From the IMG/VR virus record IMGVR_UViG_2923323785_000002, positions 1-12,369 of that record: 12,369 nt of DNA; one strand, written 5' to 3'. This document shows, piece after piece, positions 3,001-6,000 of this stretch (position 1 is its first letter; each line of letters begins with the position of its first letter). The position numbers are program-made. The stretch is from a virus. Lineage: Duplodnaviria; Heunggongvirae; Uroviricota; Caudoviricetes.

Positions 3001-6000
3001 CCGAAGTCGGTGACAGACTGCCACACGCTGTTGCGGTCAACGAGAAACGCAAACGCCGCCTGAAGAAAATCATCCCGCAACTGAAAACGCCAAACGTGGA
3101 CGGTTTCAGAGCGTATGTCAGGGCGTTTGTGCATCAGGCCAAGCCGTTTTACTTCGGAGACAACGACACGGGCTGGACAGCTGATTTTGATTACCTGCTG
3201 AGGGAAGATTCGTTAACGGGAGTTCGGGAAGGGAAGTTTGCAGACAGGGGGATTGCATGAAACAGGATATCGAAGCGAGCGTTATCGGTGGCCTGCTGAT
3301 TGGTGGATTAACACCAACTGCCAGTGACGTTCTGGCAACGCTGGAGCCGGAAGCGTTTTCAATTCCGCTCTACCGGAAAGCCTTCGAGGTTATCCGGAAG
3401 CAGGCGAGAAACAGAAACCTAATCGACGCGCTGATGGTTGCCGAGGCGTGCGGAGAGGAGCATTTCACGTCAATCCTGATGACCAGCAAAAACTGCCCGA
3501 GTGCCGCAAACCTGAAGGGATATGCCGGAATGGTCGCGGATAACTATCACCGCCGTCTGGTGCTGGAAATCATGGATGAAATGCGTGAACCAATCCAAAG
3601 CGGAACCATCGACGCATCGAGTCAGGCGATGGATGAACTTGTAAAGCGTCTTTCAGCCATCAGAAATCCCCGTGACGAGGTTAAACCTGTACGGTTAGGG
3701 GAAATCATCACTGACTACACTGACACGCTTGACAGGCGTCTGAGGAACGGAGAAGAGTCAGATACCCTGAAGACCGGAATCGACGAACTTGACGCCATCA
3801 CCGGAGGGATGAACGCAGAAGACCTGGTGATTATCGCCGCTCGTCCTGGTATGGGTAAAACCGAACTGGCGCTGAAGATTGCTGAAGGCGTTGCAAGCCG
3901 TGTTATTCCTGGTTCTGACGTCCGGCGCGGGGTATTGATTTTCTCAATGGAAATGAGCGCATTGCAGATTGCAGAGCGAAGCATTGCCAACGCCGGGAGG
4001 ATGTCGGTTAGCGTACTGCGAAATCCTGCATCGATGGATGACGAAGGCTGGGCGCGTGTTGCTAACGGCATGAGTCAGCTTGCGGATTTGGATGTATGGG
4101 AAACCGGTGTTCTTAAAAAGTTATATGCAGCTATAACAGATGACCAACAGGCTGTCGCAGAAAAATATGGCGCGGGGGAGTTATGGACGCTTGGTAAGGA
4201 GTTGGTAAAAACACGAAAATCCATTGAAGATGATGCCGTAACCGTTTTGGGTAGAAAACTTCAGCAATCAGCAATTCCAAAAGTTGAAAGTGCCGTTGTT
4301 AATATGGCAAAAGGAAACGGTGGTGACTTTAGGCAATTAATGAAGTCAATTCCAAAGGATATGCGGCAGGAAGTTGCGCTCACCTCAATGAATAAAGCAT
4401 TTACCAGCTATGCTAAATCACCAGGTCAGCAATTAGGGGTTGATGGATTTGTAAAATGGTATAACGGAATGTCACGCAATGGGGCCAATATGAAGGCTCT
4501 CCGTGATGCTATTGGCACAGATGCATCAAAGCGCCTTGATACGATTTATCAAGCAGCCAAGGCTATGAATAGACTCAATACTGGTAAGCAGTATGCTAGC
4601 AGCCTTGTGGATCAGCAAGTTAATAACTTTCTGAAGGAAAAGGGTAGTCTAGCAAAAATTTATGGAATAGCCTCAAAAGCTGCTGCTGCGGAAGGTGTTA
4701 CAAGCTTATCTGGTCTTCCTGGTGTAGGTGCAACAGGGGTGATAACGTCCGCATTGATGTCAGGGAAAACAAGCAGGATAAAGGCTGCTGATGCTCTACT
4801 GTCTTCTCCTGAGTTTAAATCAATGCTATTTCGCCTGCAAAACGCACCAGTAGACAGAGCAGAAGTGAGACGCGCAATAGAAAGGAAACTGATGCAATCT
4901 GGGGTATTTAAGAGATGGGAGAAAACCCTATCAACAGATGAAGCAAAAACCATTGCTCGCACTGGGATTATTACATGGTTATCTCAGCAAGATACTACAG
5001 CCAGTGACGGCGACCAAAAGATGTAACAAGGAACGAGATAATCCAACCAACCGTTACCATGTTAATCCCCATAAAGCCAAGGATGGCTATCTGTCAACTA
5101 AAGGACAATTGCTAATCCCCATGATCCCATTATCCGAGTACCAATAATTTCTGGAGAATTTTCCAGAAGCGCTTAGGTATTTACATTCAATCTTGTTACC
5201 GTCAGTTATTGATGAATATTTAACCCCATAACCAGTAAATGCAGACAAAACAAGTAAAAAGATTGCAAATAACCCAATAGTAAATTTTTTCATATCAACA
5301 TCCTTAGCATTTTCTTTTTACTTTTCCAACAAAAGCTTTGGTTGAATCCATATTCCCATAACCAGAAATGGTTTTCGACATTAAAACTGTTCCATTAGGA
5401 TGTATTACCCATGAGTCGATAACTCGTTGAGTTTCGCCATTCGCGCCGATTCCAATGATGGAGTTTTTAGACAATGCTTTGTAAGCCATGCCACCCGCAT
5501 CCGTCCCAGAATATGTGATGCTGGCATCTTCACCGCTTGTCTTAATGATAAATGTTCCACTAAAACCATCTTCTTCCGGTTGGAAATTATTTCGTTCTGA
5601 ATAGCTTATTCCGCGCATATCTCCAACAACCCAGCATTCTGCTGTAGCCCCAAAAGATATGAATAAGAACATACTGGCAATCAATCGCTTCACCCCAATC
5701 TCCCACTAAGGTAACAATATGACCATAGAAGAACGCCTGAACAACATTGAGTTGAATCAAACCCTGCTTGACCAGCGACTTTCAGATCTTGAGCTTAAAG
5801 ATCTTGATGCGCAAATATCAGAAGCAGAAGCCAAGCTCTCCAGCTTAAACCACCGTAAGAAGCAAATCCGCAACAGAATTACTCAGGTACGCGGAAGCTG
5901 TTGAGGTGGGATGCTAGGTCTCTATCGTTAAAATCAAGGCTGCTAATCATTTCATTGTAAATGGCGTTTTTATCTTCCATTGGCAGCCTTGAGTAAACCA

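Follow-up and report, generated by a model that had tools for sequence, protein, structure and literature searches.

An in-frame helicase–ejection protein fusion in Escherichia coli is very probably a scar of prophage decay, formed at a recurrently used helicase breakpoint

This study examined a 12,369-nucleotide stretch of DNA (IMG/VR virus record IMGVR_UViG_2923323785_000002, positions 1 to 12,369; hereafter the window) and, within it, the open reading frame (ORF) at positions 3257–5026 on the + strand. The ORF is very probably a non-functional scar of prophage decay, in which a deletion fused the 5′ part of a replicative helicase gene to the 3′ part of an ejection-protein gene, in frame by chance. 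Further, the helicase breakpoint is a deletion hotspot that has been reused within a few bases by independent prophage deletions. The window is identical to positions 2260566–2272934 of NZ_CP024245.1, the finished chromosome of E. coli O27:H7 strain B4103-1, and spans from the sucrose permease gene cscB (1–1248) to yfdC, with a prophage remnant of 9–10 kb between them.

The ORF starts with an ATG that overlaps the stop codon of the truncated replication initiator gene O′ (ATGA) and encodes 589 amino acids (aa). Its GC content falls from 0.533 (3257–4100) to 0.433 (4101–5026), and the GC content of third codon positions falls from 0.569 to 0.344. The megablast search against phages split the ORF at its base 844, and the pieces also met at base 301 of a query covering 3800–4400. 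The probability that the last 308 codons would stay open by chance is approximately 1e-9, and none of 20,000 shuffles stayed open; therefore, the downstream part is genuinely coding and keeps its native reading frame. These data agree with a preliminary description of this DNA, which had read the ORF as an in-frame chimera whose DnaB motifs stop at about residue 280, with a drop in GC content at the same point and a downstream part unlikely to be open by chance, and they place the junction exactly at base 4100 (residue 281/282). The PGAP annotation lists a pseudogene for the helicase part ('replicative DNA helicase, incomplete, missing C-terminus') and has no feature at 4101–5026. In some public records, the fusion protein (P0001) is named 'AAA family ATPase' or 'hypothetical protein'.

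The first part of the ORF (3257–4100) showed 98.0% DNA identity to the P gene of HK97 (NC_002167, 30686–31529) and 97–98% identity to the corresponding DNA of CUS-3, HK544, and many Shiga toxin (Stx) phages. At the protein level, residues 1–281 are approximately 98% identical to the HK97 gp55 (P)/P22 gp12-type helicase (NP_037740.1), with which the ORF shares the DnaB N-terminal domain, Walker A, H1a, and a start codon overlapping the O stop. The Pfam search placed the DnaB N-terminal domain (PF00772) at residues 3–95 (E = 1e-13) and DnaB_C at residues 171–280, the latter covering only profile positions 2–104 of 255, and residues 281–589 had no helicase, ATPase, DnaB_C, AAA, or RecA-type match in Pfam. 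Walker A (GMGKT) lies at residues 198–202 (3848–3862) and H1a is kept, and everything from Walker B onward is gone; the ORF thus has the N-terminal DnaB domain but not a complete RecA-type ATPase domain (Walker A, Walker B, H2–H4). The HK97-type helicase continues with 177 more residues (282–458), containing Walker B/H2, H3, H4, and the arginine finger, whereas the ORF lacks all of them. Therefore, as far as the DnaB family is generally understood, the product could not form an active hexameric helicase.

The second part of the ORF (ORF bases 844–1722) showed 97.0% identity to Lederbergvirus E212 (MZ043897, 27790–28668), inside a 707-codon coding sequence (CDS; 26563–28686, QVW53994.1), the value for the whole of 4100–5026 against codons 410–707 being 96–97%, and the encoded C-terminal part was 99% identical to the C-terminal half of a 717-aa protein (P0002). 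This part matched positions 410–706 of 707 in phrog_6704 (E = 2e-179) and also matched phrog_770, the 'DNA transfer protein' family (E = 6e-10). The latter is the family of P22 gp16, which itself matched with E = 2e-266, and the full-length parent P0002 matched profile positions 133–631 of 668 with E = 1e-25. In the comparison with P22 gp16 proposed in the preliminary description, similarity was seen through the shared phrog_770 profile but not by pairwise BLASTP, in which the C-terminal part had no significant similarity to P22 gp16 (E = 0.23); this agrees with the 22–26% identity reported between the gp16 types of P22-like phages (PMC10461980). Judged by its sequence, the C-terminal part is a type of gene-16 protein that differs from, and is rarer than, P22 gp16. 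High-identity relatives among sequenced phages were found only in E212, EC.P3, and S.Kent 1-2-1, while more distant ones were found in Kapi1 (44% identity) and among the 'DNA transfer' proteins of other podophages (approximately 25–30%). No solved structure matched, and the Pfam copy used gave no match for the E212 parent and none even for P22 gp16.

Concerning the position of the parent gene, it lies in E212 after genes for a gp7-like 'injection protein' and a gp20-like 'DNA transfer protein', as in the P22 order 7-20-16, and therefore occupies the position of P22 gene 16. Like gene 16, it also precedes the immI region and the tailspike gene, and in the window the fragment is followed downstream by mnt, arc, ant, and the tailspike gene. 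Compared with the E212/P0002 parent, the ORF keeps just the C-terminal 298 residues; it does not encode a full-length, virion-packaged ejection protein, since codons 1–409 are missing, along with every virion assembly gene. QVW53994.1 of E212 (L002 4774–6897) and similar records carry the label 'transglycosylase' or 'lytic transglycosylase' without Pfam support. The transglycosylase domain of T7 gp16 is not conserved in P22-like phages according to a review (PMC8954989), and the name looks like a propagated annotation.

The three-way alignment at the junction reads GTATGGG/TAGTCG in HK97, GTATGGG/AAACCGG in the window, and GATGAAG/AAACAGG in E212. Base 4100 is the first base of both helicase codon 282 and E212 codon 410, and this common codon phase therefore kept the frame; the remaining two frames stay open for only 11 and 4 codons. 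In E212, approximately 21 kb separate the replication gene from codon 410 of gp16 and include nin, Q, holin, lysin, spanin, both terminase subunits, portal, scaffold, coat, gp4, gp10, gp26, gp14, gp7, and gp20. As in a pseudogene formed at a deletion junction, the two sides are near-identical to different intact phage genes, the switch between them is abrupt, and the intervening genes are absent. The earlier proposal that the C-terminus of an ejection protein had been joined through a large deletion in a P22-like prophage was thus borne out by the match to E212 codons 410–707, the phrog_6704 assignment, and the loss of approximately 21 kb.

Based on this evidence, a P22-like (Lederbergvirus-type) prophage integrated at argW lost approximately 21 kb in a single event, with helicase codon 282 and ejection-gene codon 409 as the limits of the loss. 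The ends were joined through illegitimate recombination at the one shared G, and both were in phase 1 by a 1-in-3 chance, resulting in the 589-codon ORF. The predicted product is a helicase fragment that lacks Walker B, the arginine finger, and the DNA-binding loops, followed by an ejection-protein fragment that lacks its first 409 residues.

A second deletion was found upstream, with its junction at 2503/2504, where the 3′ fragment of a DUF551 gene (DUF551′) is joined to O′ with a 2-nt TA microhomology. Window positions 2301–2505 are 100% identical to positions 1–205 of L012, a locus that also carries a truncated helicase gene. The second deletion took early-left genes, the immunity (repressor/cro) region, and the 5′ end of O. 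The O and P promoters of lambdoid phages lie in the early-left operon and the repressor/cro region. Because the deleted immunity region normally holds these promoters, the second deletion would leave the ORF without a native promoter. A simple consensus scan of positions 1200–5400 found no sigma-70-like promoter on the + strand.

The helicase breakpoint is not peculiar to this remnant. The protein search revealed approximately 20 other chimeras with the same helicase N-terminal part and unrelated phage C-terminal parts, and their breakpoints cluster, with six partners at residues 281–283, two at 288–290, five at 388–392, and three at 249–251. The cluster at 249–251 (P0032, P0034, and P0040; approximately window 4001–4009) and that at 388–392 (P0011, P0013, P0014, P0017, and P0021; in the segment that the window has lost) are known from protein sequences only. 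Junction DNA was compared for the 281–283 group and for one case (L014) from the DNA search of complete genomes. The helicase sequence ends with TGGG in the window, where the partner is E212-type gp16′, and with TGGGTA in L009 (P22-type gp16′), L012 (gp20′), L014 (gp4′, out of frame), L016 (lambda-type Q′), and L018 (sequence just upstream of the tailspike gene), while in L020 (gp26′) it ends with TGGGTAGTCG. In the intact gene, the breakpoint motif is GTATGGGTA^GTCG, and window positions 4094–4106 correspond to 2838–2850 of HK97 L003. A second full copy of GTATGGGTA is located within Walker A (3849–3857).

The seven helicase alleles differ pairwise at 16–34 of 844 nt and are equally distant from intact HK97; therefore, the seven deletions are independent, and common ancestry of the hotspot junctions, the partners of which also differ, was rejected. 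Homology stopped inside a 120-nt interval centered on the hotspot in 7 of 690 complete-genome records, compared with 0 of 698 and 0 of 695 for control intervals in the same gene. The other helicase N-terminal fusions of E. coli prophages (P0020, P0008, P0006, P0005, and P0004; L014) resemble that of the window in being cut within 6 nt of the same position of the same gene and in having the right end in a late gene or Q, but their partners and helicase alleles differ, and one junction is out of frame. Microhomology was 0–4 nt where it could be judged, that is, for the window (1 nt) and for L016, in which it is presumably GGTA by comparison with the lambda Q sequence.

The left end of O′, starting with TACCGAAG (window 2504, approximately O codon 22), was likewise reused: in L009 (5247–5248), the same base is joined to chromosomal dsdC′, not to DUF551′. 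The retained O′–helicase′ segment reads 5′-TACC...GGTA-3′. The origin-like array in O′, with iterons followed by an A/T-rich repeat, resembles the layout of lambda ori. It lies between both recurrent endpoints, and the origin-facing side was kept each time.

As a tentative explanation of the hotspot, the junction might mark where HK97-type helicase genes are broken in a sequence-specific manner, at GTATGGGTA^GTCG, with a possible second site before TACCGAAG in O, across the origin. A site-specific nuclease or nick, or the collapse of forks from the prophage origin, would leave a precise origin-proximal end that is rejoined far away, repeatedly disabling lambdoid and P22-like prophages by one-sided deletions. 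If replication forks from the prophage origin ran into a break or nick, the constant retention of the origin-proximal side would follow. No hairpin or cruciform was indicated at the hotspot, since the sequence ±50 nt around it folded no better than shuffles on either strand, and no Chi sites were present in the window or in the HK97 O–P region. GGTA was rejected as a sufficient motif: the helicase gene contains five GGTA sites (ending in codons 199, 201, 282, 392, and 417), and only that at 282, perhaps also that at 392, matches breakpoints. The hotspot pattern GATTTGGATGTATGGGTAH was not found in viral contigs, and its 41 matches in metagenome contigs were all in unrelated genes with no helicase homology upstream.

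Related helicase alleles of Stx phages (P0024, 1,046 member sequences; LC487996.1, L062 1501–3894) carry a LAGLIDADG intein of 339 aa (1,017 nt). The intein is inserted after GGTATGGGGAAA, between K201 and T202 of Walker A (GMGK/T), and its homing site corresponds to window 3846–3868; the native homing site sequence is CCTGGTATGGGGAAAACCGAACTGG, and the hotspot counterpart is GGATGTATGGGTAGTCGATGCCTCG. A doubtful explanation of the break, which we regard as improbable, is that the hotspot TGGGTA^GTCG is an off-target site of the homing endonuclease of this intein, the enzyme remaining on the matching left half-site and shielding it, and the right end undergoing resection and distant rejoining. 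To the left of the break, the 9-nt GTATGGGTA agrees with the homing site at 9/9 positions in HK97 and the window, and at 8/9 in the commoner allele GTATGGGGA. The enzyme is assumed, as is general for homing endonucleases of this kind, to produce 4-nt 3′ overhangs and to stay bound to one product; a spacing of 4 nt between the endpoints TGGGTA (five cases) and TGGGTAGTCG (one case) fits such an overhang, and the corresponding 4 nt of the native site (AAAC) straddle the insertion point. However, the right half-site matches at only 4/9 positions, and 9-mer repeats are common in the helicase gene, and chance alone would give approximately 3.6 pairs. In each of the seven deletion alleles, the native site 245 bp upstream is still intact and intein-less, and the enzyme would be expected to prefer it. 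Additionally, the protein collection contained no intein-bearing chimera truncated at the hotspot, and the genomes of B4103-1 and CUVET21-147 have no second helicase copy, intein-bearing or not.

Concerning the distribution of the fusion itself, the exact junction was detected in 1 of 5,426 complete E. coli genomes, namely that of the source strain, and in none of the viral, metagenome, and species-representative genome contig collections. No other protein shares the 90% cluster of the fusion protein. Five further assemblies or read sets encode the fusion (ERR1937246, GCA_017760655.1, ERR4899487, GCA_012082595.1, and SRR25477365), all with the same dsdA–csc–remnant–intS–yfdC–mlaA context and with 100% identity to the window over the shared DNA. 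The same context and the zero divergence therefore indicate one recent clone.

The preliminary description had also raised a selected fusion with a new function, which found no support and appears highly unlikely. Such a product might poison the replisome of incoming HK97-type phages as a dominant-negative helicase fragment or, as a gp16 C-terminal decoy, disturb the ejection conduit of P22-like phages (superinfection exclusion). The ORF is intact and in frame, several more in-frame helicase N-terminal fusions occur in E. coli, and the P22 mutations that overcome SieA exclusion are located in the C-terminal regions of gp16 and gp20, which makes this region functionally important (PMC10461980). 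However, gp16 works from the virion after ejection and not from the cytoplasm (PMC10461980). Nor does the ORF have the marks of an exapted gene, as far as expression can be read from sequence: the promoters of the immunity region are deleted, none was found on the + strand in the consensus scan, PGAP calls a pseudogene, and only one clone without divergence carries the fusion.

The in-frame state, moreover, is a 1-in-3 event, and the sole case from the DNA search, L014, has the same helicase breakpoint out of frame; therefore, the in-frame state is not required. Selection for in-frame fusions in general was rejected in view of L014, and clustering bias probably explains the rest: the in-frame excess among the protein matches is probably due to ascertainment, short out-of-frame truncations having been absorbed into the 90% cluster of the intact helicase.

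Some observations nevertheless weigh against a non-functional scar. The ORF keeps its native start overlapping the O′ stop, and O′ has an in-frame ATG and a 246-aa CDS in the PGAP annotation; therefore, low-level translation of the ORF may be possible. The promoter scan used a simple consensus only, and all copies of the fusion are identical, giving no divergence by which relaxed and purifying selection could be distinguished.

Other readings of the ORF carry almost no weight. A divergent intact replicative helicase, the C-terminal ATPase half of which has drifted past recognition, would agree with the continuous ORF only, whereas the Walker B/H2–H4 motifs named in the preliminary description as evidence for it were not found in the C-terminal part by Pfam and PHROG profile searches, residues 282–589 have no DnaB_C, AAA, or RecA match and are 99% identical to the C-terminal half of an ejection protein (phrog_6704, E = 2e-179), and an intact helicase of this type goes on with VVDASRLSVEE... 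after residue 281. Equally negligible is a chimeric contig produced by an assembly or sequencing artefact, since the junction is present in a finished chromosome plus five independent assemblies or read sets, identical over the shared DNA.

Table 1. Features of the prophage remnant and its surroundings, with positions in the window.
Feature	Position	Strand	Description
DUF551 3′ fragment (DUF551′)	2386–2505	-	Last 40 codons; PGAP pseudogene, 'missing N-terminus'
5′-truncated replication initiator gene (O′)	2504–3260	+	From approximately codon 22 of HK97 O; 98.2% identity to HK97 from L003 1247 on; Pfam Phage_rep_O
Origin-like array in O′	2778–2892	+	Four 18-nt iterons (2778–2862, spacing 20–24), then A/T-rich tandem repeat (2865–2892); repeat search
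HK97-type DnaB-like replicative helicase gene, 5′ fragment	3257–4100	+	Codons 1–281 of 458 and first base of codon 282
Recurrent breakpoint motif	4094–4100	+	GTATGGGTA^GTCG in the intact helicase gene; GTATGGG remains
Deletion junction	4100	+	Single G common to both parents (1-nt microhomology); codon position 1 in both
Gene-16-position ejection/DNA transfer protein gene, 3′ fragment	4101–5026	+	Rare phrog_6704 type; codons 410–707 and stop
tRNA-Arg(CCT) gene argW	11287–11361		Adjoins the prophage remnant

The remnant contains, in order, torI (-), eag (-), DUF551′ (-), O′ (+), the ORF (+), a YobH-like ORF (-), a 129-aa signal-peptide ORF (-), small ORFs, mnt (-), arc (+), ant (+), the tailspike gene (+), and intS (-). 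Compared with P22, the gene order from O′ to the tailspike gene is that of a P22-like phage with the entire middle absent. The distal part (5087–9828) is seemingly intact, with the YobH-like ORF, the 129-aa protein, mnt, arc, ant, and the tailspike gene. The 129-aa signal-peptide protein belongs to phrog_2651 and occupies the P22 sieA position, Ant has 309 aa, and the tailspike has 611 aa with a P22 head-binding domain and a beta-helix.

The insertion site is the same as that of KplE1/CPS-53, the defective argW prophage of K-12 (intS...torI), and in both, IntS lies beside tRNA-Arg(CCT) and TorI at the far end. The B4103-1 remnant is multiply deleted and non-inducible, a KplE1-like trait, and its ends are marked by partial argW 3′-end repeats. 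In contrast, the gene content differs, as O′, the helicase fragment, the gp16 fragment, mnt/arc/ant, and the tailspike gene remain here and csc genes are adjacent. Left of the remnant, two differing partial copies of the argW 3′ end, TGGTGTCCCCTGCAG and GGAATCGAACCTGCAA, were observed at 1690–1704 and 1998–2013 (cf. 11287–11316). torI lies between these copies, an arrangement that suggests either a composite island or integration twice in succession. The csc genes of B4103-1 (cscR-like, cscA, cscK-like, and cscB; upstream region, L001 1–6449, and window 1–1248) lie between a truncated dsdX and the remnant. The strain of L009 has no csc, and there the remnant is directly next to a truncated dsdC.

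The fusion is one more ordinary pseudogene of prophage decay rather than a new kind of protein, and the annotation 'AAA family ATPase' is unwarranted. The surviving pieces, namely ori, O′, immI, ant, and the tailspike gene, matter because defective prophages are known DNA donors for temperate phages (PMC3945230). Only the reuse of the breakpoint by independent deletions may surprise phage specialists. If it is true that inactivating deletions start at defined bases beside the phage origin, prophage decay would be partly deterministic, and the responsible activity, such as a nuclease or a nick or fork-collapse site, could be sought experimentally.

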